Source of the DNA: Octopus vulgaris
Lineage: Eukaryota
DNA length: 64,000 nt
Direction of reading: 5' to 3'
Assembly: GCA_951406725.2 (NCBI GenBank)
Contig: OX597816.1
Coordinates: 162,254,001-162,318,000, forward strand
Under the pieces are notes generated by a model. That model was not told where the DNA came from. It ran no database searches and saw nothing but the letters and a program-made list of their open reading frames with translations. The position numbers and the translations under genes are program-made. The stretch's first letter is position 1. Each line of letters starts with the position of its first letter. Shown here in pieces: positions 6,891 through 60,463 of the stretch.

Positions 6891-6990
6891 TTAGACATGT
6901 CTCCTTTCTCTGTTTGAGCTAGAAGTGCGAGATTTGGGTACTATGTCTAGCTGGGATGTATATATACATGTATATATATATATATATATA

Positions 6991-7167
6991 TTTCAGTGCG
7001 GTCATACTGGAGCACCGCCTTTAGTCGAACAAATCGACCACATGACTTATTCTTTGTAAGGCTAGTACTTATTCCGCTAAGTTACGGTGACGTAAATACA
7101 CCAAAATCGGTTGTCAAGCGATGGTGGGAGGACAAACACAGATACACAAATACATAGATACATAGAT

Positions 7168-7217
<50 letters not shown>

Positions 7218-7372
7218 GATAGGATTCTTTCAGTTTTCCTCTATCAAAACCACTTACAAGGCTTTGTTCGGCCCGAGGCTATACTAAAAGACACTTGCCT
7301 AAAGTGCCACGCAGTGGGACTGAAACTGGAACCAAGTGGTTGGGAAGCCAGCTTCTTACCACACAGCCACTC
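6991..7372 (-). mobile_element. SINE family A (tRNA-derived head, CORE-like motif, internal microsatellite)
   Basis: Same architecture as the copies at 29067, 34865, 39265 and 58936; A-box tggctgtgtgg on the minus strand. Confidence 0.85.
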
Positions 7373-13015: not shown

Positions 13016-13489
13016 TCAGAACGTAACGGCAAACAAAATCCCTCTAGGCATTTCGCCCGGCGTGCTAAAGTTTCTTATTTCTTTATTGCCCACAAGGGGC
13101 TAAACATAGAGGGGACAAACAAGGACAGGCAAAGGTATTAAGTCGATTACATTGACTCCAGTGCGTAACTGATACTTAATTTATCGACCCCGATAGAACG
13201 AAAAGCAAAGTCAACCTTAGTGGAATTTGAACTCCGAACGTTACAGCCGACGAAATACCTATTATTTTACTACCCGCAATGGGCTTAACACAGAGGGGAC
13301 AAACAAGGGCAGATAAACGGATCAAGTCGATTACATCGAGCCAGTGCGTAACTGGTACTTATTTTGATCGACCCCGAAAGGATGAAAGGCAATGTCGACC
13401 TCGGCGGATTTGAACTCAGAACGTAACGGCAGACGAAATACCGCTAAGCATTTCGTCCAGCGTGCTCACGTTTCTACCAGCTCACCGCC
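13016..13489 (-). mobile_element. SINE family B tandem multimer (about 2.3 units)
   Basis: Full head at 13489, two Meta-like domain plus tail units, then a further head fragment; it truncates the R4 relic. Confidence 0.85.
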
Positions 13490-14283
13490 TTTTTTCCGTT
13501 CTATTTTCTCACCAATTGATTTCCTCCTCCGTCTTTCTTCTTCTCACATCATCTCTCTTCATCTCCCTTCTTCTCTCCCTCTTTTTTTTTCTCCTTATCT
13601 TCACTTCTTTCTTTCTCCCCCTCCTCTAACTCTGCATTCCTTATTCTTTCTTTCTTTCTTTCTTTTTATTTATTTATTTATTTCCAGATGTTTGTCTTCT
13701 GCTCTTCTTGTTTCCGCTCACAGTTTATTCGACACACACCTCACGGTCTTCCCAATTTTTGAAATTCCTGCATTCTCTCACACTCACAGTATGCGTGTAT
13801 GCGTGTGTTTCTCTTTGCGCACGCATATATTAGCTGGATGAGTTTATATATACATGCGTGCGTATGTGTGTATGTGTAACTATATGCATGTATGTTATGT
13901 GTCTATGAATGTATGTATGGATATACACACAGACAGATAAACAGATAGATGTGTACTTTTAGCCTCGCTGTCCAAACACACTCAGTATTCGAACCACAAA
14001 CCTCCAACAGTTGAACAGAATGAAGAAAACGGTCAACATTGTTACCCTGATCTTGATCAGCTTATCAGAAAAGTGTTTGCTTCATACCATCTGTGTAGAG
14101 AGAGGCACAGAGAGAGGTGAGAAGAGGGAATAGTTTTAAGATGATTGTAAAATTAACACCACGAGCAACCGCTACTATATTATCTCATTTGCATATCGAT
14201 GTATTTATTAATCCACGACTTCAATGAACATTGATAATTTTTCCATCGTCTTGGCTTAACAGTCCTCACCGTTTGTTTTTACT

Positions 14284-19077: not shown

Positions 19078-19400
19078 TGGTGTGGCACTCTGTCCGTTAA
19101 GACGACTAACGGTCCAGTTGATCCAATTAACGGAACAGCCAGCTCTTGAAATCAACGTGCAATCCATCTGAGTACTCTACAGACATACGTACTGCGTATC
19201 CTTAAAATAATTCTCAGGCAGATTGAGCGTGACACACCAAATGTGTACTATAGGTAAAGCTAATTTCTGTTAGCTGAGTGAACTGGAGCAACGTGAAATA
19301 AAGTGTATTGCTCAAGGATACAATGCACCGCAGGGAATCGAACACAGGATCTTACAATCTCAAGCCGAGTACCTTAACTACTGGGCCATGCATCTTCACA
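19078..19400 (-). mobile_element. SINE family C (tRNA head plus CORE domain)
   Basis: Minus strand has tggcccagtagttaagg...ttcgattccc and ccttgagcaatacacttt; tail as in 52990-53312. Confidence 0.75.
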
Positions 19401-29066: not shown

Positions 29067-29497
29067 TACTCTTTTTACTCTTTTACTCTTTTACTTGTTT
29101 CAGTCATTTGACTGTGGCCATGCTGGAGCACCGCCTTTAGTCGAGCAAATCGACCCCAGGACTTGTTCTTTGTAAGCCTAGTACTTAATCTATCGGTCTC
29201 TTTTGCCGAACCGCTAAGTTACGGGGACGTAAACACACCAGCATCAGTTGCCAAGTGATGTTGGCAGGTACAAACACAGACACAGATACACAAACATATA
29301 CACACACACATACACATATATTATACACATATACGACAGGCTTCTTTTAGTTTCCGTCTACCAAATCCACTCACAAGGCTTTGGTTGGCCCGAGACTATA
29401 GTAGAAGACACTTGCCCAAGATGCCACGCAGTGTGACTGAACCCGGAACCATGTGGTTCGTAAACAAGCTACTTACCACACAGCCACTCCTACGCCT
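29067..29497 (-). mobile_element. SINE family A, full length
   Basis: Head aggcgtaggagtggctgtgtggtaag...ccgggttcagtc, CORE-like cttgggcaagtgtctt, (GAGTAAAA)n tail. Confidence 0.9.
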
Positions 29498-30133: not shown

Positions 30134-30495
30134 GGTGGAGGCGCAATGGCCCAGTGGGCAGGGCAGTGGACACGCAGTCGCAGAATAGCGTTTTCGATTC
30201 CCGTTTTGTTTATTGAACGAAAACACCTAAAGCTCCACGAGGCTCCAGCAGGGGGTGGGAGGCGAACCCTGCAGTGCTCTTTCACCACAACTTTCTCTCA
30301 CTCGTTCTTCCTGTTTCTGTTGTACTTGTATTTCAAAGGGGCCAGCCTTGTCACACACTGTGTCAAGTTGAATCTTCCCGAGAACTACGTTGAGGGTACA
30401 CATGCCTGTGGAGTGCTCAGTCACTTGCACGTTGATTTCACGTTAATCGGATCGATTGGAACCCTCGTCGTCGTAACCGACTGAGTGCTGCAACG
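30134..30495 (+). mobile_element. tRNA-headed SINE with the family C tail but a different central region
   Basis: A-box tggcccagtgg, B-box-like ttcgattccc; the tail ccctcgtcgtcgtaaccgac is shared with 52990 and 19078. Confidence 0.75.
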
Positions 30496-34700: not shown

Positions 34701-35470
34701 AAGGCGCAGGCGGGGCTGTGTGGTAAGAAACTTTCTCCCAATCATATGGTTCCGGGTTCAATCGCACTGTATAACACCTTGGGTGAGTGCTTTGTACAAT
34801 ATACTCAGGCCGACCTTGGTAGATAGAAACTGAAAGAAGCTGTCATGTGCGTGTGTATATATATTCTTTTTCTTTTACTTGTTTCAGTCATTTGACTGCG
34901 GCCATGCTGGAGCACCGCCTTTAATCGAGCAGCTCGACCCCAGGACTTATTCTTTTGTAAGCCTAGTACTTATTCTATCAGTCTCTTTTGCCGAACCGCT
35001 AAGTAACGGGGACATAAACACACCAGCATCGGTTGTCAAGCAATGCTAGGAGGACAAACACAGACACAAACACACGCATATATATATATACATATATACG
35101 ACGGGCTTCTTTCAGTTTCCGTCTACCAAATCCACTCACAAGGCTTTGGTCGGCCCGAGGCTATAACAGAAGACACTTGCCCAAGGTGCCACGCAGTGGG
35201 ACTGAACTCGGAACCATGTGGTTGGTAAACAAGCTACCTACCACACAGCCACTCCTGCGCCTATATATATATTCATGTCTGTGTCTGTTCCTCACAATAA
35301 GTATTGATTTATTTACGTCCCCTCAACCAAGCGGTTTCGCAGAAAGAGATGGATAGAATAAGTACCATTCTTTAAATTAATAATAAAAACTGGTGTCGAT
35401 TCATTTGATTAAAATTTTTTCGAGGCAGTGCTTCATCATGGCCACGATCTAATGATTGAACCAAGTAAAT
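34701..35470 (+). mobile_element. Old SINE family A copy (+) interrupted in its internal microsatellite by a younger copy (-)
   Basis: Head 34701-34850 and tail 35275-35470 flank the inverted copy at 34865-35262. Confidence 0.7.
34865..35262 (-). mobile_element. SINE family A, full length
   Basis: Closely similar to the copies at 29067, 39265 and 58936. Confidence 0.9.
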
Positions 35471-35818
35471 GGTCAACAAGGCATCAAGTGCTGGCAGTTA
35501 TCCACCCTCTTCCTCTCGCTAAAAATTTCGATTTTGACTTTCATTCTTCCAGCCTGATAAAACAAAACATCCATCATTTAGCTATTTGAACCTGCGATTA
35601 CGCTTTAGCGAGCTCGTTTTAGTTTGACTTACACTCCTGCAAAAGTCGTTGATCGTATGGTTTTGTTCTTATGGCTGAAAATAATGTTGTGTCTATCAAT
35701 TTAACCAGCTGTAAACACAAAAACATACGACAGCCAACTTTTGTGTCTTCCTGAGGAATAGGCAAAAAAATTTCATCCTTGAAGTATATTCGTAGATTCA
35801 TATAGTTACACATTGATA

Positions 35819-36048
35819 GGCGGCGAACTGGCAGAGATGTTAGCACGCCGAGCGAAATGCTTAGCGGTATTTCATCTGCCGCTACGTTCTGAGTTCAAAT
35901 TCCGCCGAGGTCGACTTTGCCTTTCATACTTTCAGGATCGATAAATAAAGTACCAGTTACGCACTGGAGTCGATGTAATCGACTTAATCCCTTTGTCTGT
36001 CCTTGTTTGTCTCCTCTATATTTAGCCCCTTGTGGGCAATAAATAAAT
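35819..36048 (+). mobile_element. SINE family B with 17-bp TSD
   Basis: TSD atatagttacacattga at 35800-35816 and 36049-36065. Confidence 0.92.
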
Positions 36049-38411: not shown

Positions 38412-38444
38412 TTTTTGACGATATAGTACAATATTTGTACAAAA

Positions 38445-38675
38445 GGCGGTGAGCTGGCAGAAACGTTAGCACACCGGGCGAAATACTTAGCGGTATTACG
38501 CCTGCCGCTACGTTCTGAGTTCAAATTCCGCCGAGGTCGACTTTGCCTTTCATCCTTTCGGGGTCGATTAAATAAGTACCAGTTACGCACTGGGGTTGAT
38601 ATAATCGACTTAATCCGTTTGTATGTCCTTGTTTGTCCTCTCTGTGTTTAGCCCCTTGTGGTTAGTAAAGAAATA
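38445..38675 (+). mobile_element. SINE family B with 20-bp TSD, nested in the ORF1-only element
   Basis: TSD gatatagtacaatatttgta at 38420-38439 and 38676-38695; Meta-like gcctttcatcctttcggggtcgattaaataagtacc. Confidence 0.93.
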
Positions 38676-39050
38676 GATATAGTACAATATTTGTAGTAAT
38701 TTTGTGTTAAAGAAAAAGATACAAGACTGTAAAGTAACATTGTAATTTAGAAAACAGTAAAATGAAACTACTTGCTTTATGGGACAGGTAAGTCATTTCA
38801 TCCTCATTTTCATCATGTTAATAATGCATCCCATATATAATTATATGTACCCCATTGTCTTATTTTGTCTGTCTTTGTGGTATCTATCCCCTTTTTATAA
38901 AAACCATGTACCTAAATTAAAAGAAATAGAGCTGTGTAGTTCCGAGAGTTGCGTATTGTCGAGTGTAATTACAAGTGTTTTTTTTATCTTGAGTTGAACG
39001 ATTTGCGAGAACGCTATATATTAACCCGTTACAGCGTACGTCGAACGTGC

Positions 39051-39223
39051 GATACAACAGTGGTGACGACGGTTCGGACAATATTGCCACTGATACAACA
39101 GTGGCGACGAGGATACGGACAATATCGCCACTGATACAACAGTGGCGACGAGGATACGGACAATATCGCCACTGATGCAACAGTGGCGACAAGGATACGG
39201 ACAATATCGCCACTGATACAACA
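39051..39223 (+). repeat. 4.2 x 41-bp tandem repeat: LTR-end-like GATACAACA plus tRNA-Ser(GCU)-type PBS
   Basis: Unit gatacaacagtggcgacgaggatacggacaatatcgccact at 39051, 39092, 39133 and 39174, plus a final gatacaaca. Confidence 0.85.
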
Positions 39224-39264: not shown

Positions 39265-39491
39265 ACTCTCTTTACTCTTTTACTCTTTTACTTGTTTCAG
39301 TCATTTGACTGCGGCCATGCTGGAGCACCGCCTTTAGTCGAGCAAATCGACCCCGGGACTTATTCTTTGTAAGCCCAGTACTTATTCTATCAGTCTCTTT
39401 TGCCGAACCGCTAGGTGACGAGGACGTAAACACACCAGCATCGGTTGTCAAGCAATTCTACGGGGACAAACACAGACACACAAACACACAC

Positions 39492-39524
<33 letters not shown>

Positions 39525-39696
39525 CATATATACGACAGGCTTCTTTCAATTTCCGTCTACCAAATCCACTCACAAGGCATTGGTCGGCCCGGGGCTATAG
39601 CAGAAGACACTTGCCCAAGATGCCACGCAGTGGGACTGAACCCGGAACCATGTGGTTGGTTAGCAAGCTACTTACCACACAGCCACTCCTGCGCCT
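39265..39696 (-). mobile_element. SINE family A, full length
   Basis: As 29067-29497. Confidence 0.9.
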
Positions 39697-39728
39697 ATAT
39701 GGCTTTGTGCCTAAAACCATTTATCATT

Positions 39729-40116
39729 CAGTTCTATATTTGAGAGATGAGGAATTATGTACATTATTTATAATTCACGGATATTTGTCCTCATCTTGTT
39801 CGTTGTTAACACAACCTTTCGGCTGATATATGCTCCAGCCTTTATCAGGTGTCTTGGGGAAATTTCAAACCTGGATTCTCAATCCCTAGCGGTATTTCGT
39901 CTGCGTTACGTTGTGAGTTCAAATTCCGCCGAGGTCGACTTTGCCTTTCATCCTTTCGGGGTCGATAAATTAAGTACCAGTTACGCACTGGGGTCGATGT
40001 AATCGACTTAATACCTATGTCTGTCCTTGTTTGTCCCCTCTGTGTTTAGCCCCTTGTGGGTAATAAAGAAATAGGTATTTTTCGTTGTTGTTGTTGTTGT
40101 CCTCGTTGTCCTTCTT

Positions 40117-40189
<73 letters not shown>

Positions 40190-40498
40190 TCACTGCCTGG
40201 AATCGAACTCGGAATCTTGGGGTTAGTAGCCCGCGCTCTTAACCACTATACCATACGGGCATATGCCTAAGTGGTTAAGAGCGCGGGCTACTAACCCCAA
40301 GATTCCGAGTTAGATTCCAGGCTTACCTGAATGATAATAACAGCAACATCGAAAAATACCTTAGGAATGAGGACCCAGATTCGAAATTTCCCCAAGACAC
40401 CTGATGAAGGCTGGAGGGTGTATCAGCTGAAACGTTGTGTTAACAACCAACAAGATGAGGACAAATATCCGTGAATTGTAAATAATGTAACTAATGTA
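39729..40498. mobile_element. Head-to-head pair of tRNA-headed, HHR-bearing PLE-derived units (family T)
   Basis: 11-bp TSD catttatcatt (39718-39728, 40499-40509); arms join near 40257; a headless SINE B is nested at 39889-40073. Confidence 0.85.
40396..40441 (+). ncRNA. Minimal type I hammerhead ribozyme motif
   Basis: gacac-CTGATGA-A-ggctg(10 nt)cagct-GAAAC-GTT-gtgtt: 5-bp stem I, 5-bp stem II, palindromic stem III (ACGT). Confidence 0.75.
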
Positions 40499-40509
40499 CA
40501 TTTATCATT

Positions 40510-41361
40510 TGTTTCTACTATAGGCACAAGACTTCAAATTTGAGGGAAAGTGGCCCCGTCGATTACATCGATATTGGTGCTCAACCGACACATATTTTAT
40601 CGACCGAAAGGTAAAGTGGACCACGGCGGAATTTGAACTCGGAGCATAAAGAAAGATGAAACACCGCTAAGCATTTTGTCCAGTGTTCTAATGAAGCTGC
40701 CAGCTCACCGCCTTAGAAATATTTACTGGTTTCAAAGTTTGGCAGAAAGCCAGCAATTCCGGGTGAGGTTAGTCGATAACGTCGACCACAATGCTTTTTT
40801 CATCGACCCCGAAAGGATGAAAGCGTAAGTCGACCTCGGCGGAATTTGAACACAGGACGTCATAACGGATAAAATGCAGTTAGCATTTTGTCCAGCGTTC
40901 TTAACGATTCTGTCGGTTCGCCGCCTTTTGGCAAATATTTATTTTTTATTGCCCATAGGAGCTAAACATAGAAGGGACAAACAAAGACAGAGAAAGAGAG
41001 AAAGGGATTAAGTCGATTACATCGACCCCAGTGTGTAACTGGTACATATTTAATCGACCCAGAAAGGACGAAAGGCAAAGTCAACCTCGGCGGAATTTGA
41101 ACTCAGAACGCAAGGACAGACAAAATAGCCAGTTCTTTACTACCCACAAGGGGCTAAACACAGAGAGGACAAACAAGGACAGACAAACGGATTAAGTCGA
41201 TTATATCGACTCCAGTGCGTAACTGGTACTTATTTCATCGACCCAGAAAGGACGAAAGGCAAAGTCAACCTCGGCGGAATTTGAACTCAGAACGTAAGGA
41301 CAGACGAAATAGTGCTAAGCATTTCGACCGGTGTGCTAACGATTCTGCCAGCTCGCCGCCT
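40510..41361 (-). mobile_element. Cluster of SINE family B copies, including a tandem dimer
   Basis: Four gtcRacctcggcggaatttgaa-like cores; dimer at about 40940-41361. Confidence 0.85.
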
Positions 41362-42268
41362 ATTGGCAAATATTGAACATGGTTGTCACTAACACAAGTC
41401 TGGCATGTTGAGATATTAAGATCTGGGCACCATTAAGTTACATACCTTATATTACAGAGATACGTCGCTGGAGGTCGTTTATTAACAAGAAAAACATGGC
41501 GGGTTATAACTATGGAAAAAAAAAATCCATGTAAGTTAAAAGCATGATGAAAACTAGAACCAAAAAAAAATTTAAAAAACTACAAAGATTTCACTCGTAG
41601 AATGACGAAGCAATCATTAAGCTGTTTTTAAAATATGACATGGTATGGTTAAAATAAGAAACAAATAAAGAATTATAATTATTTAGAAAAAAAACACACA
41701 AATAAAAAAGTAATAAAAAGACAAAAGAAAAGAAACGGTTTTCTGTCTTTCAAATATTCAGTTAACAAAGTAAAGCAAAAAACAACAAAACACTGTATTG
41801 CTTCAAATCTTGAGAAAATGTGAACATTATTTAAATATACCCCATTCTATTCTATAGATATTTTAATAAGTTTTCAACACTACCCTATCTTAAACGAATG
41901 CTTACACTTCAATCAAACCTACTTGGAAATCTAAGCTCTTCAAAAAATGCCATTAAAATAAACCGTTGTTGCTATTCTCTTCTTTCGTCAAAATCTGTGA
42001 AGATAATGCCAACATGTAAAAGACAGCTGTTTTGATATTTCTGGCTTTATTACAAGGAAAGCGCGACGGGGTTGTTTGGAATTCTCCCATATTTGAGCAG
42101 ATATTGAGTTCTGTCCATATAGCTAGAAGCACGCACGAAGACTACCGATAGAGAGTGTGATGACAGTCGGATAGCGTTACTTCAAAACCTCGTTTTTCAA
42201 GGTATCAAATGGAAAGGAAAAGCAGAGTAGTAGCAGTGGCAGCAGTAGTAGTAATTGTAGTAGTAGTA

Positions 42269-42954: not shown

Positions 42955-43871
42955 ACAGAGAGAGAAAGAGGGAGAGAGACGGAGTACATGTGTGTGTATG
43001 TGTAAACATATAATACATACATACATTGTATGTATGTGTGTGTGTGTATTTACCTGCGTATGTCTGTTTAACAAGATATACTGATGAAAGTGTGTGTATG
43101 TGGGGGTTTTTGTGGGGAATGGTGTTTGTTAAGATGCAAATATAACTCACACCAGTGGAGAAAGTATGTGTGTGTGTCAACAGAATATCTCGGTTCATGT
43201 TTGGAGATAGTTTCTGAATATTTGTGCTTAGTACGAAATCTTTATCACGAGATAAAATAAAACAAAACAGGAGCGACACCTACCGTGCATTATATCACCC
43301 ACTGGAGGTAATTCCTTCTTAAATGTGTACTGGAAAGTTGTGTGTTTTGTGCGTGCGTGTGTTTGTGTTTGTATGCTATCATTGTGGCTGTTTAGCCCCA
43401 GGTGTGTCTTCATTGAGCAGATCTATGATCAAAGGTATTCCAGTCATATCTTTTTATCTAATGTTTCCTTCCTTTTTATAAGTCAATTTCGTATGATTAC
43501 AGGAAGTTTGGCTGCTATTCCGCGGATGACCATAACCAAGTTCCCTCCCCGTCTTACCTTTCCTTGTCTGTTGTAACCCTTTAATCTCAACAGGTATCGT
43601 TTAACCATAAGAAACATCTATGATCAAAGGTTTTCCAGCCGTGACCATCTCACCTTTTACGCCCTACATTACAGAATGTATTCATCCAGTTTTTTAAATG
43701 GTAGAAAATAAACATTTCCTCACATTTCCTTTTCGCTATGAACCCGAGAATATTTACATCAAATCGTGAGGCAGTTCAAACTGTGGTTTATTTTCTACGC
43801 AGTGATACTCATAAAGTGCTACGCTAATTTACGAACTATGGTCAACAGTATGTCTGTCCAGCTCACCTTTA

Positions 43872-44303
43872 CATTTGGCGGAATTTTGTTCTCACCTTGT
43901 TTGTCCTCATCTTGGGGAACTTCGAACCTGGGTATTTTTCGATGTTGTTGTTGTTATTATTATTATTAATAATTGAACTCAGCATCTTGGGATTAGTAGC
44001 CCGCGCTCATAACCACTACGCCATACGCCCGTGGGCAATTATGGGGTGAATTTTAGGGCTTATAAATCTAATATTTTCCTATCCTTCCTTAATACCGGTT
44101 CCCATATGCTACTCATATCTGCACTCGGTTTGCTTAAGAGGTTGTTGTGTCATAGCATATGAGCTGCTTCTTTTAGTTTCCATATTTTCCAATGGTGTTC
44201 TCTGCCTATTATTTTAATTTCATCCCACAGGGGACAAATATCCTTCAAATGTAAATAATGTAAATAATGTGCATAATTCCTCATCTCTTAAATATCGAAC
44301 TGT
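43872..44303 (-). mobile_element. 5'-truncated Penelope-like element: GIY-YIG C-terminus, tRNA-headed pseudo-LTR, short inverted tail copy
   Basis: 44230-44060 reads LWDEIKIIGREHHWKIWKLKEAAHML*HNNLLSKPSADMSSIWEPVLRKDRKILDL*; tRNA-like head begins at 44030; inverted tail at 44231-44303; TSD agctcaYcttta (43860-43871, 44304-44315). Confidence 0.8.
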
Positions 44304-44847
44304 AGCTCATCTTTAGATAAACGCCGGCACGTATACACCCATGCACACACATTAAGATTGTTGAAAAGCATAAGGCTATTCCGTAATCTTTAAACTTCGA
44401 TATGTTGCTGTGAGATCTTAGCAGAAATAGAAAAACGTTTTATCTTTATTTCGTTATTTCCAAACAGTATCTACTGATCTGAAGTGGAAGTAATTATAAG
44501 TTTTAACGCTTCTTCTTTTCCTCTAATTGAACTCTTCAAATCCGATGGTCTCAAGCATTGCACTGATGATGCACAAAGTACTGAAACAGGCAGTTATTTA
44601 CTATTAACTGAAAGAATACACACACAAATGTGTATGTATGTCGTTATTCAGTTTATTTCAAAATCTCTTGCCAACAGAGAAAGAACCTGTTTCTAACCTA
44701 GTTCCAAGGCTCCTGCATTGGAAATTCAACATCAACAACAGGGTATTTTTGTTCGTTTGTATGTATGTATGTATGTATGTATGTACATATGTATAATCCA
44801 ATGAAAAGAAGACAAAGAAAATTCTTTAACACATCTTAACACCCCCC

Positions 44848-45269: not shown

Positions 45270-45365
45270 GGAGTAAACACATAAATGTGAAACAAGGTGG
45301 AAAAAAGAGTACTCGAATACCAGTGGTAGAGTAATATGCTTTATTTTAAGCAGCAGAAAATTCAA

Positions 45366-45415
45366 CAAAATCTGTTACTCTGAGTTTCTCGTTGCCGTTC
45401 ATCAGACAGTTTTTG
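45366..45415 (-). ncRNA. Minimal type I hammerhead motif in the 3' pseudo-LTR
   Basis: Reverse complement of 47247-47296. Confidence 0.7.
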
Positions 45416-46419
45416 CTAGAATGGAACATATATATTAATTCAATCTATACTCTTACAAACGCTACACCTTTAAAAAGAAATGGACTTGTTTGATTGGCCC
45501 TTTAGAAAAAACGGTCAATCTTCGAGCGATAAACAAAAAGGTCAAAAATATATGTATATATATATAAAAACTTATAAAAATTATAAAATCCGAGGAAAAT
45601 ACCGAGGAAAAAACCTGTTGCCGTTAATGAAGACAGTACAAATTAATGCATAGAAATTAAACCTGTTATAAATACTGCAATACATATTTATATTAAAATC
45701 CACATATATATATCAACATACACAAAAGGATGCGCGTAAACGCCATACATACATATACAGACGTATGAATATGAATCTAAATTATACACATAAAAGCATG
45801 TGTACATATATTCACGCAAACCGTCTCGCACGCAAGCTAAAATTCATCTATGTAGCAATTCTCATATACTGAGCAAGGAGGGGGAACGAAAGAAAGGGAA
45901 AGAGAGAAAAAGAAACGGAGGAGGGGTGGGGAAAACTTGTAGCGATATTATTTGGCATCTATAGAGGCCAGTATACATACACAAGTTTGAATTGATACAT
46001 ATACATACCGTCGTGTATATGTGTGCTTAAGCACAAGCATACTTTCACTTACACACACACAGATACGCATGCTTACAAATACATATGCTTTGCTATACAC
46101 AAACTTATATAAACATTCTAAATTTGACAACATTGCTTTTTTTTAAAAAAAAAACATTGCTTTTAAAAAATGGGTGCATTAATAAAAATATATACGAAAG
46201 ACCTATAAAATAAAATATAACATCCTATTTTGGGTCATTTATAAATAATCAAGGTAATATAAATAATCAAGGTAATCTTATGCAATACAATAACATGAAA
46301 ACAAAGTTTGTAGGTTTTTCCTAATATATATGTAGAAACAATAAGACTTTGCTATAGGTCCGTTGTAGCGCTCAAGAGTCAAAATCAAAATCAAAAAATC
46401 AAAATACAAAATATATACT

Positions 46420-46692: not shown

Positions 46693-47246
46693 CTCTATAG
46701 ATGCCAAATAACATCGCTACAAGTTTTTTCCCCACCCCTCCTCCGTTCCTTTTTCTCTCTTTCCCTTTCTTTCGTTCCCCCTCCTTGCTCAGTATATGAG
46801 AATTGCTACATAGATGAATTTTAGCTTGCGTGCGAGACGGTTTGCGTGAATATATGTACACATGCTTTTATGTGTATAATTTAGATTCATATTCATACGT
46901 CTGTATATGTATGTATGGCGTTTACGCGCATCCTTTTGTGTATGTTGATATATATATGTGGATTTTAATATAAATATGTATTGCAGTATTTATAACAGGT
47001 TTAATTTCTATGCATTAATTTGTACTGTCTTCATTAACGGCAACAGGTTTTTTCCTCGGTATTTTCCTCGGATTTTATAATTTTTATAAGTTTTTATATA
47101 TATATACATATATTTTTGACCTTTTTGTTTATCGCTCGAAGATTGACCGTTTTTTTCTAAAGGGCCAATCAAACAAGTCCATTTCTTTTTAAAGGTGTAG
47201 CGTTTGTAAGAGTATAGACTGAATTAATATATATGTTCCATTCTAG

Positions 47247-47296
47247 CAAAAACTGTCTGATGAACGGCAACGAGAAACTCAGAGTAACAGATTTTG
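47247..47296 (+). ncRNA. Minimal type I hammerhead motif in the inverted pseudo-LTR
   Basis: caaaaactgt-CTGATGA-A-CG-GCAA-CG-A-GAAA-CTC-A-GAG-TA-acagattttg. Confidence 0.7.
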
Positions 47297-47322
47297 TTGA
47301 ATTTTCTGCTGCTTAAAATAAA

Positions 47323-47377
<55 letters not shown>

Positions 47378-48026: not shown

Positions 48027-48064
<38 letters not shown>

Positions 48065-48427
48065 ATATATAAACGGCAGTTTGTCTGTGCGTGTTTCTGT
48101 GTGTCTGTTTGCTTGTACCCTCACCCTGACCACGGCTTTCAACCGATTCTGATGAAACTTGACACACACACAGCCCAATGTCATAATTCAAGACTAACGC
48201 AGCGAAAATTTTGAAAAGTTCCCCCAGTTCTGAAAAAATCGATAAATTCGACATGGGGTCGAGAATCAGAAACACAAACCGCAAACTGTCTAGGGGACGC
48301 AACTCCACCTTTTTTAACTAAAAAAAAATTTACCATCATTTTTTTGCTATTTTTTGGCTATAACTCTCTAAAAATGCTTTATAGTTATTTCCCTTACAAA
48401 CCTGAGCAACGCCGGGCGATACTGCTA

Positions 48428-48462
<35 letters not shown>

Positions 48463-48983: not shown

Positions 48984-50251
48984 TTGGGTCATCCCATAAA
49001 TAATGTGGGTTTTTCAATTGCATGAACTAAAAGTCGGAAGGGGACAGGGTAAACTACCTGCATCAACTTGATATAAGGCAGGTACTAATTTTACTTTGTC
49101 CTTATTCTTAGTGCAAGTTTTGAAGAGTGCAGTTCGGTTTTAACAGTTATGTCTTTAAAGCTATAATGGAAGTGACAAATGAGGATATTTGGTATATTTT
49201 GCTTTATGAGTTCAATAAAGGCAACAACTCGACAGAAGATGCGGGGAATATTAATGCAGTATACGGGGATCGGACAATAAGCGTAAGCCAGTATCAACGG
49301 TTATTCCGAGCGGAAAACTACAGCCTAGAAGATGAGCGTCCTGGAAGATCTGTAGAGCTCGACGAGGACGTCCTACAAACCCTGGTGGAACAAAATCCCA
49401 TCGTAACTGTTGAGGAACTAGCGGAAAAGCTTGGATTTGGTCATTCAACCAGTCATTCAAGTCAGCGCTAGAAGAAAAACGACCATCTGTGATTTCAAGA
49501 TGAAAGGTGTTCTTCCATCAGGATAATGATTGGCTACATACAGTGAGGACGACAGTCCAAATGCTGGAGCAGTTTGAATGGGAAACGATTCCCTACTCAC
49601 CATATTCGCCAGGCATTGCCCCATCTGATTATCACTTATTCCGCGGTCTACAAAATCATTTGGACAGAAAAAAATATGAATTCTGTAGACGAGGTCAGAA
49701 CAGTATTGGAGGAGCACTTTTCGTCAGGGACAAGTGAATTTTGGAAGAGGGGCCTTGCAACTCTAGCAGATAGATGGAAAAGCATTGTAGAAAATGAAGG
49801 AGAGTATATCTCTCTCTATATAAACGGCAGTTTGTCTGTGCGTGTTTCTGTGTGTCTGTCAGGTTGTACCCTCACCCTGACCACGGCTTTCAACCGATTC
49901 TGATGAAACTTGACACACACATAGCCCAATGTCATAATTCAAAACTAACGCAGCGAAAATTTTGAAAAGTTCCCCCAGTTCTGAAAAAATCGATAAATTC
50001 GACATGGGGTCGAGAATCAGAAACACAAACCGCAAACTGTCTAGGGGACGCAACTCCACCTTTTTTAACTAAAAAAAAAAATTTACCATCATTTTTTTGC
50101 TATAACTCTCTAAAAATGCTTTATAGTTATTTCCCTTACAAACCTGAGCAACGCCGGGCGATACTGCTAGTTTTAGATTAAAAAAGAATTTATCTTAATT
50201 TTGAAAAATAAAAGAAGTATAAAAAACCGCATTATTTATGGGATTTTCCAA
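48984..50251 (+). mobile_element. Internally deleted mariner (D,D34D) transposon
   Basis: TIRs ttgggtcatcccataaataatgtggg / ccgcattatttatgggattttccaa, TA TSD (48982-83, 50252-53); HTH from the ATG at 49166, FHQDN and PYSPGIAPSDYHLF motifs; the WVPHEL/first-Asp region is deleted. Confidence 0.93.
49809..50170 (+). mobile_element. Non-autonomous Helitron nested in the mariner
   Basis: Near-identical to the 48060 copy; splits gag tat a|tt tta gat taa (EYILD*) at an AT site without TSD. Confidence 0.93.
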
Positions 50252-52989: not shown

Positions 52990-53312
52990 AGGAGCACTCC
53001 GTCGGTTACGACGACGAGGGTCCCAGCTGATACGAAACAGCTTGCTCGTGAAATTAACGTGAAAGTGGCTGAGCACTCCGCAGACACGTGTACCCTTAAC
53101 GTAGTTCTCGGGGGAGATTCAGCGTGCCAAAGAGTGTGACAAGACTGGCCCTTTCGAAATACAGGTACTACTCATTTTCGCCAGCTGAGTGAACTGGAGC
53201 AACATGAATTAAAGTGTCTTGCTCAAGGACACAACAGATCGTCGGGAATTGAACTCACGACCGTAGGATCGTGAGCCGAATACCTTAAGCACTAAGCCAC
53301 GCGCCTTCACAC
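52990..53312 (-). mobile_element. SINE family C (tRNA head plus CORE)
   Basis: Minus strand ggcgcgtggcttagtgcttaagg...gagttcaattccc, gtgtccttgagcaagacactt, tail accctcgtcgtcgtaaccgacggagtgc. Confidence 0.85.
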
Positions 53313-57657: not shown

Positions 57658-58093
57658 AAAGGAATGGTTAGCTCCACAAGGGAAATTTTTTTTAAAAGCG
57701 TTAAAAATAAAACGTAAATATCAAACGAATGTTCTCAAGCTATGGCTTGGGGTCCAGAATTGATATTCTCCAAATTGGTGTACCTTGAAGATTAAGTATG
57801 TAAGGGTTTCAAATTTTTGGAAAACGGCCAGCATTTTGGGAGCGGGATGTTCAAGTCAGTTACATCGACCCTAGTGAAAGGAATGGTTAGCTCAAGAAGG
57901 GAAATTTTTTTTAAAAGCGTTAAAAAAAACGTAAATGTCAAACGAATGTTCTCAAGCTATGGCTTGGGGTCCAGAATTGATATTCTCCAAATTGGTGTAC
58001 CTTGAAGATTAAGTATGTAAGGCTTTCAAAGTTTTGGAAAACGGCCAGCATTTTGGGAGCGGGATGTTCAAGTCAGTTACATCGACCCTAGTG
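57658..58093 (+). repeat. Recent ~218-bp tandem duplication
   Basis: Units 57658-57876 and 57877-58093 (aaaggaatggttagctc...atcgaccctagtg), nearly identical. Confidence 0.9.
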
Positions 58094-58935: not shown

Positions 58936-59372
58936 TACTCTTTTGTACTCTTTTACTCTTTTACTTGTTTCAGTCATTTGACTGCGGCCATGCTGGGGCA
59001 CCGCCTTTAATCGAGCTACTCGACCCCGGGACTTATTCTTTTGTAAGCCCAGTACTTATTCTATCGGTCTCTTTTGCCGAACCGCTAAGTAACGGGACAT
59101 AAACACACCAGCATCAGTTGTTAAGCAATGCTAGGGGGTCAAACACAGACACACAAAAACACACAAACACACACACACACACACACATATAATATATATA
59201 CATATATACGACGGGCTTCTTTCAGTTTCCGTCTACCAAATCTACTCACAAGGCTTTGGTCAGCCCGAGGCTATAGTAGAAGACACTTGCTCAAGGTGCC
59301 ACGCAGTGGGACTGAACCTGGAACCATGTGGATGGTAAACAAGCTACTTACCACACAGCCACTCCTGCGCCT
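58936..59372 (-). mobile_element. SINE family A, full length
   Basis: As 29067-29497. Confidence 0.9.
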
Positions 59373-59473: not shown

Positions 59474-60122
<649 letters not shown>

Positions 60123-60463
60123 TTTATGTTATGAGTTCAAATTCCGCTGAGGTCAAATTTGCTTTTCATCCTTTCCGGATCAATAAAATAAGTACCAGTC
60201 AAGTACTTGGGTTGATACAATCGACTATGCCCACCTCGCTCACGCCCCGAAGATGTGTGCTAAAATTTGAATCAATCTTAACGTTTAAACAATTGGTTTG
60301 CTTTCTGTTGTACACTAAGCGTTCGCTTTACCCCCCCCCCCCACACACTTCTCTTGCGAGTGTTGGTGTGTGGACAGTTTTTAATGAGAAGGTTAATGTC
60401 ATCAAAACTGGGAGAGGGCACTGTGGTATATTTATGTACTGTGTCACATTTGAATATCTCATC

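Follow-up and report, generated by a model that had tools for sequence, protein, structure and literature searches.

A tRNA-derived head in the pseudo-LTR of a coding PLE of Octopus vulgaris, and its likely role as a Pol III promoter

What is a tRNA-like sequence doing 29 nt behind the stop codon of a PLE endonuclease? Coding retrotransposons usually depend on Pol II, whereas SINEs combine Pol III transcription with a borrowed LINE machinery (the SINE definition is given in PMC3531059). The locus that raises this question lies in a window of 64,000 nucleotides of the Octopus vulgaris genome (GCA_951406725.2, contig OX597816.1, positions 162,254,001 to 162,318,000 of the forward strand), and coordinates below are those of the window. 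We suggest, from sequence comparisons, that this head of a Penelope/Poseidon-type pseudo-LTR is likely a Pol III promoter, and that the resulting RNAs are likely copied by the element's own enzyme into short SINE-like copies.

Anatomy of the copy in the window

The copy, with its TSD, spans 43860-44315 and has the following parts.

43860-43871, no strand: left copy of the TSD, 12 bp, AGCTCACCTTTA, with one mismatch to 44304-44315
43872-43943, minus strand: 3' part of the pseudo-LTR, ending at the main 3' end of the family; the hammerhead core and the family start codon are deleted
43944-43970, minus strand: (AAT/AAC)n microsatellite of the pseudo-LTR
43971-44030, minus strand: tRNA-derived head, with the A box at 44023-44013 and the B box at 43978-43971; its last ~14 nt are deleted
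44031-44059, minus strand: 29-nt spacer from the stop codon to the head, with a short palindrome at its end that reaches over the first bases of the head
44060-44233, minus strand: C-terminus of the GIY-YIG endonuclease of a Penelope/Poseidon-type ORF, 5'-truncated; coding 44233-44063, TAA 44062-44060
44152-44150, minus strand: private internal TGA in the ORF piece
44232-44303, plus strand: inverted partial pseudo-LTR with a ~30-nt tail extension, 72 bases, abutting the truncated 5' end
44304-44315, no strand: right copy of the TSD, 12 bp, AGCTCATCTTTA, with one mismatch to 43860-43871

This is a dead, 5'-truncated copy of a Penelope/Poseidon-type retrotransposon, consisting of the 3' end of the element. 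The end of the head, the family start codon (lost with 15 nt) and the hammerhead core are missing through three short deletions. A TSD match this good was found for 0.35% of 2000 random site pairs. The original prediction had described a minus-strand PLE endonuclease-like C-terminus, a tRNA-like head 29 nt past its stop codon, a microsatellite and tail behind the head (with the repeat end at 43872), a short inverted tail copy at the truncated 5' end, a 12-bp TSD with one mismatch, and a deleted hammerhead segment; all of the parts after the stop codon, the flanking repeats and the deletion are as it described them. The peptide is also of PLE identity, being 55% identical to the C-terminal end of the full-length RT+EN protein P0003, but its 56-codon frame is not open, because it is interrupted by the TGA at 44152-44150, which had been overlooked. 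A selenocysteine reading of this codon was dropped, since the TGA is private to the window copy. The palindrome across the head start is 12 nt long (44026-44037, or -7 to +4 relative to the head start), and several inverted junctions can be read as fold-back from it.

The element and its tRNA-derived head

Searching the genome with the 56-codon peptide gave 3309 candidates, of which 150 were scored, at 80-100% identity. The doubt voiced with the original prediction, that the peptide might not be PLE-related, is removed by longer copies, which carry an RT (PF00078, E = 5.5e-10 on the natural copy L122) together with a GIY-YIG/CCHH domain. The columns Y, C, C, G, Y, R, E, H, H, R and E of this domain are invariant across 12 proteins, and the Atlas assigns it to GIY-YIG clusters at 0.96. 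The Pfam GIY-YIG match is weak, with 2 of the 12 homologues at E = 0.017 and none of the pieces of the octopus tRNA-headed family.

Assembly of the full-length PLE, suggested with the original prediction, was done by voting across copies. The column majority is a unit of 2652 nt (2.65 kb) with an 835-codon frame that encodes RT, with GIY-YIG at the C-terminus, and it runs in the order ORF, stop, 29 nt, head, microsatellite, start codon, hammerhead and tail. The ORF starts within the pseudo-LTR, 115 bases past the head start, and the frame crosses the hammerhead. The translated hammerhead is the N-terminus of the protein (L103:1588-2406), and P0003 begins with the same translated ribozyme in the same frame. 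The hammerhead is minimal, with the core, a 5-bp stem I, a 6-bp stem II, a bulged A and a palindromic stem III. Its predicted cut would fall 70 nt past the start codon, and both core halves are retained in 11 of 30 copies. Other traits of EN+ PLEs are seen in the family as well, namely a single ORF with RT, pseudo-LTR tandems, inverted 5' copies and an optional tail. Copies are 5-7.5% off the majority (22 copies), and no intact one was seen among those examined. Samples taken at even spacing, 400 kb in all, contained six loci, from which we estimate about 42,000 (15,000-91,000) in the host genome, which measures 2.8 Gb and is rich in microsatellites.

The CX2-5CXXC linker by which Neptune and Nematis are defined in PMC8557442 is absent in the natural copies, and because it is missing we place the family in Penelope/Poseidon; two other PLE families in this genome do have the linker. 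In a quick RT tree, built without a named Poseidon reference, the family groups with P0001-P0004 with support of 98-99, and these proteins are 51-68% identical to that of the family. The first metagenome scan and the viral scan returned nothing for the DNA of the P0001-P0004 families, and a second metagenome scan gave relatives of 29-50% identity to P0001. Six contigs in bacterial genome bins (L465-L470) carry Poseidon-like ORFs and are likely animal host DNA. The octopus genome also holds a young PLE family of Neptune type (L313, at G000:C4:98438500-98445500, and L314-L320), whose copies are nearly identical and which has an open frame of 884 codons; L316 represents a second Neptune-type family. 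In these Neptune-type control families (L313, L314-L320), no tRNA-like match was found after the stop.

Is the head a regular part of the element? The original prediction had tied the tRNA-derived sequence to the pseudo-LTR of an ORF-bearing PLE, and had allowed that other ORF-bearing copies might lack it, as they would after a chance SINE insertion. Among 30 loci selected by protein, the head follows the stop in 29, with scores above those of 200 shuffles; as the window copy is one of these, the same position is occupied in 28 of 29 other loci. In a second sample of 30 loci selected by DNA, three of them shared with the first set, the head is found in 23, one of which is marginal. The seven headless loci are three internal deletions that rejoin the repeat downstream and four copies that end at or in the spacer, and their breakpoints all differ. 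Since the misses are deletions and truncations at different points, no headless subfamily is seen. Genome searches with P0003 and P0049 recovered, among the matches listed, only the same family and two Neptune-type ones, and no headless sister family. The head is also found in upstream pseudo-LTRs, ahead of the ORF start. Furthermore, two runs with different organism codes, X18 and X20, gave contigs that span the stop into the head, and the family is present in all four runs examined. The head is a fixed part of the pseudo-LTR and not a chance SINE insertion.

The best donor match of the head majority is the host tRNA-Arg(TCT), with 72% identity (51 of 71 aligned bases), in a comparison set of only 10 anticodon labels that includes some pseudogenes and no true Ser, His or Asn tRNA. 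A model made from nine host tRNAs recovers family copies down to E = 8e-5 and the truncated window copy only at E = 0.42. The A and B boxes match the consensus, and the stems are partly broken. ARAGORN made no call on the head, even with relaxed settings on the majority, and Rfam made none on the head or the hammerhead; a functional tRNA gene was rejected because the cloverleaf fails in both programs. SINEBase asks for at least 60% tRNA identity over 60 nt, which the 51 of 71 bases shared with tRNA-Arg(TCT) exceed, and for a non-autonomous repeat in need of a partner LINE, whereas the short form here is the pseudo-LTR of a coding PLE.

A tRNA-like match near the relative L388 was set aside, as it lies outside the L388 pseudo-LTR. 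tRNA-like heads of other repeat families occur in the window at 19322-19393 and 53235-53306 on the minus strand and at 30140-30193 on the plus strand, with 40-44 matches in a 74-base alignment to the head.

5' ends, TTTT runs and the choice of polymerase

The 5' ends were determined in 100 copies, chosen solely by an exact 35-mer in the 3' half of the head (taken in listing order from 529 and 681 matches, and located on contigs C1-C2). The head itself contains 16 of the ends, and 76 fall between +8 and -19; the 115 bases beyond -19 hold none, and the remaining 8 lie still further upstream, one of them cut by the locus edge. Of the 84 copies reaching +8, 76 thus end inside the same 28 bases. 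Per base, the end rate is 0.058-0.10 at the head start. It falls to 0.006 within the head on one side, and on the other to 0 over those 115 bases and 0.003 beyond them, so that the rate at the head start exceeds that on either side at least tenfold. Homology with the inverted arm likely accounts for the extra reach of the ends at -11 to -19. The palindrome could cause fold-back and add to this pile-up, and an inverted partner is present in 68 of the 100 copies and in 50 of the 76 in the peak. However, of 31 copies that have no inverted partner, 26 end in the same peak, and thus fold-back is not its whole cause. The same 5' ends would be expected of a Pol II promoter in this position.

Short copies predominate in this family. 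The exact 35-mer of the head occurs 1210 times genome-wide (529 + 681), compared with 160 times for that of the ORF end, and a comparison of 87 short with 41 ORF-linked pseudo-LTRs gave zero diagnostic columns. Two classes of 3' end are found, one near +240 and one near +270; measured from the start codon, they lie about 125 and 155 bases downstream, resembling the two internal priming sites of Poseidon_Ac. Two more loci of the family are found in the window, at 39729-40495 and 59477-60124, each with an inverted and a direct pseudo-LTR and no ORF; the direct copy begins at head position -2 in the former and +1 in the latter, and the inverted arm of the former contains an inserted piece of another repeat, of ~190 bp.

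The sense strand of the 2652-nt majority contains no TTTT run, compared with 31 AAAA runs. The probability of this absence is 0.006 by base shuffling, 0.027 by synonymous shuffling and 0.02 from host codon use, or about 0.003-0.03 overall; GGGG is likewise absent, with 4 expected. All of six other RT families in the same genome contain TTTT, near expectation. The density is 2.2 per kb in 16 foreign ORF pieces of like T content and 0.6 per kb in decayed copies of the family, which are not independent of each other, and 3 of 23 foreign ORF pieces have no TTTT. Among about ten related families, TTTT follows the stop in 9 of 10, and A and B boxes after the stop were found in none of 18 loci; one box-less family has 1750 TTTT-free ORF bases in two of six copies. 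Unlike the tRNA-headed family, the sampled relatives have spacers that are rich in T, contain TTTT runs and lack the boxes. The distance from stop to ribozyme is 181 nt in the tRNA-headed family and 205-475 nt in seven related families. Because the head occupies most of the 181 nt, there is little room for another promoter. Three RNA runs gave no start site; their reads are alike on both strands, and many extend into unlike flanks. Among the RNA-read joints listed, none with matching splice ends points to an intron in the pseudo-LTR.

The 5' ends and the lack of TTTT make it likely that the head is used by Pol III, and we propose the following course of events. Before the expansion, a sequence derived from tRNA-Arg would have come to lie in a master copy's 3' UTR and become the front of the pseudo-LTR. 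In a tandem, the head would then precede the next ORF, at the place where the promoter of PLEs is located. Transcription by Pol III would start about 5-12 bases ahead of the head, to judge from the 5' ends, and the RT would prime inside the RNA about 120-155 bases past the start codon, as in the anole Poseidon. Priming in the first pseudo-LTR would give a solo copy of 240-270 bases, while priming in a later one would give the ORF-bearing copies. Finally, in the absence of a terminator, Pol III could read through one or more units. That the head once worked as a promoter for Pol III, at any rate in making the short copies, seems to us a good deal more probable than its opposite.

The weakest step of this model is the polymerase of the translated mRNA, and we put forward the making of the coding RNA by Pol III as a tentative extension. 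In its complete form, the model describes a coding retrotransposon that Pol III would transcribe end to end, with a captured tRNA promoter, all TTTT purged from its 2.65-kb sense strand, cap-less translation, and its own SINE made from the same RNA by first-repeat priming; this complete form is possible but doubtful. Translation would have to be cap-independent, as has been proposed for R2 (PMC6765202).

Alternatively, the roles may be split. Pol III would then make only short RNAs from the head, in solo copies and in 3' repeats, for the element's protein to copy in trans, while a Pol II promoter inside the pseudo-LTR, or host read-through, would supply the mRNA. The element would bring its own SINE along without being transcribed by Pol III itself. 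This explanation shares the first four steps of our model and differs only in the fifth. Pol III RNAs are uncapped and poorly translated, and the TTTT test is modest, both of which favour split roles. The ORF start is present in 34 copies, and 6 of them extend back beyond +8; 2 of these stop at the head and 4 continue into an ORF end (Fisher p = 0.002 for 2 of 6 stopping at the head compared with 76 of 84). Because 4 of the 6 ORF-bearing copies pass the head, full-length copies appear to come often from longer templates or template jumps, which is consistent with split roles, as is the TATA-less internal promoter with a DPE reported for D. virilis Penelope (PMC2377424). However, Pol III crossing several units would also explain the copies that run past the head. 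Furthermore, L085 and L094 run in the order head, pseudo-LTR and ORF, with 5' ends at +3 and -2, and a TTTT-free unit would be unneeded if the roles were split. We consider split roles a real possibility, although on balance somewhat improbable.

It is unlikely that the head is a mere passenger, that is, a tRNA pseudogene or SINE head fixed in the master 3' UTR and never used, with the pile-up arising from a Pol II start or from fold-back of the palindrome. PLE promoters are described as lying in the pseudo-LTR anyway (PMC2377424, PMC8557442), SINEBase cautions that boxes alone are no proof (PMC3531059), and the palindrome at -7 to +4, with inverted partners in 50 of the 76 peak copies, would fit such a passenger. 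Against this, both boxes fit the consensus despite the decayed stems, most non-inverted copies also end in the peak (26 of 31), and the unusually short spacer is mostly head. An independent SINE with a borrowed PLE tail, joined to the ORF in the window by chance, would suit the short, SINE-like form of most copies, but is extremely improbable and is refuted as a chance junction by its recurrence in 28 of 29 other ORF-bearing loci, before the ORF start and in the X18 and X20 contigs, with no sequence difference between short and ORF-linked repeats.

Known elements and neighbouring repeats

PLE anatomy, minimal hammerheads, non-autonomous PLE derivatives, and Pol III modules in non-autonomous TRIMs and SM-alpha are known already. 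The full-text literature searched, which excludes most subscription papers, Repbase and Dfam, gave no description of a coding PLE with a tRNA-derived pseudo-LTR, and the available text of the cephalopod repeat surveys PMC13282606 and PMC8967140 names no such element.

The octopus family shares with Poseidon_Ac (PMC11167929) and with D. virilis Penelope (PMC2377424), as described there, a single ORF with RT and C-terminal GIY-YIG, pseudo-LTR tandems, inverted 5' copies, a ~30-nt tail and a minimal hammerhead overlapping the ORF start; minimal hammerheads of PLEs had been reported before (PMC4209133). The main 3' end lies about 120-130 nt past the start codon in the octopus family and 111-118 nt past it in Poseidon_Ac, for which internal priming at two sites and an ORF overlapping the ribozyme are reported (PMC11167929). 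The difference is in the promoter region, since the octopus pseudo-LTR opens with a tRNA-derived A/B-box module, whereas the promoter mapped in Penelope is TATA-less with a DPE (PMC2377424).

SM-alpha and Sj-alpha of schistosomes are described as combining a Pol III-type promoter with a hammerhead, the promoter of one unit transcribing the next, but they are non-coding, ORF-less tandem repeats (PMC6765202), whereas the octopus module lies inside a coding element. Animal non-LTR retrozymes (PMC7229834; bioRxiv 10.64898/2026.07.22.740005) and the non-autonomous Chlamys/MRC1 (PMC8557442) are likewise short hammerhead copies akin to PLE pseudo-LTRs and likely moved by PLEs. In contrast to the retrozymes as described in these sources, the octopus short copies are dispersed, solo or in inverted pairs, identical to the pseudo-LTR and tRNA-headed; the terms tRNA, Pol III and promoter do not occur in the available text of bioRxiv 10.64898/2026.07.22.740005. 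The TRIMp3 elements Cassandra, Helenus and Ajax also have a Pol III promoter derived from a small RNA in their terminal repeat, for which a SINE insertion has been proposed as the origin, but they are non-autonomous LTR elements whose autonomous partners are said to need Pol II (PMC10886601), whereas in octopus the coding element itself bears the module.

What does this mean for the two classes of retrotransposon? One family joins them here, in that the SINE-like repeat is the end repeat of a coding element, and it offers a concrete route from PLEs to Pol III and hammerhead repeats such as SM-alpha. It also names a testable promoter for a PLE, where promoters have been mapped in few cases. By implication, thousands to tens of thousands of 'SINE' copies of the genome would be solo pseudo-LTRs. 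If Pol III reads the ORF, the RNA of this family would be an unusual natural example of a Pol III transcript that is both long and coding.

Ohshima and Okada reportedly described the tRNA-derived octopus SINEs OK, OR1 and OR2 in 1994, and OR1 and OR2 are said to originate from an Arg tRNA. The octopus short form may already carry a SINE name, either among those of 1994 or in SINEBase. OR1 or OR2 has been classed as a CORE SINE (PMC4824008, PMC4758252), and the SINE literature covered also includes PMC5804259 and PMC3531059.

The window also contains two abundant SINE-like families, which are candidates for published octopus SINEs. One, of ~430 bp, is found at 6990-7372, 29067-29497, 34862-35266, 39265-39706 and 58937-59372, and the other, of ~240 bp, at 13255-13493, 35816-36046, 38426-38680 and 41125-41378. 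A 636-bp inverted repeat (45334-45966 and 46693-47328), whose arms are 98.9% identical, is likely a young element with long terminal inverted repeats. The window also contains a 378-bp direct repeat (48054-48429 and 49805-50171, 94.7%), a 217-bp tandem pair (57658-58093) and a 41-bp tandem array (39051-39223). Elsewhere, L028:774-1009 is a near-perfect hairpin of ~236 bp, likely a MITE.
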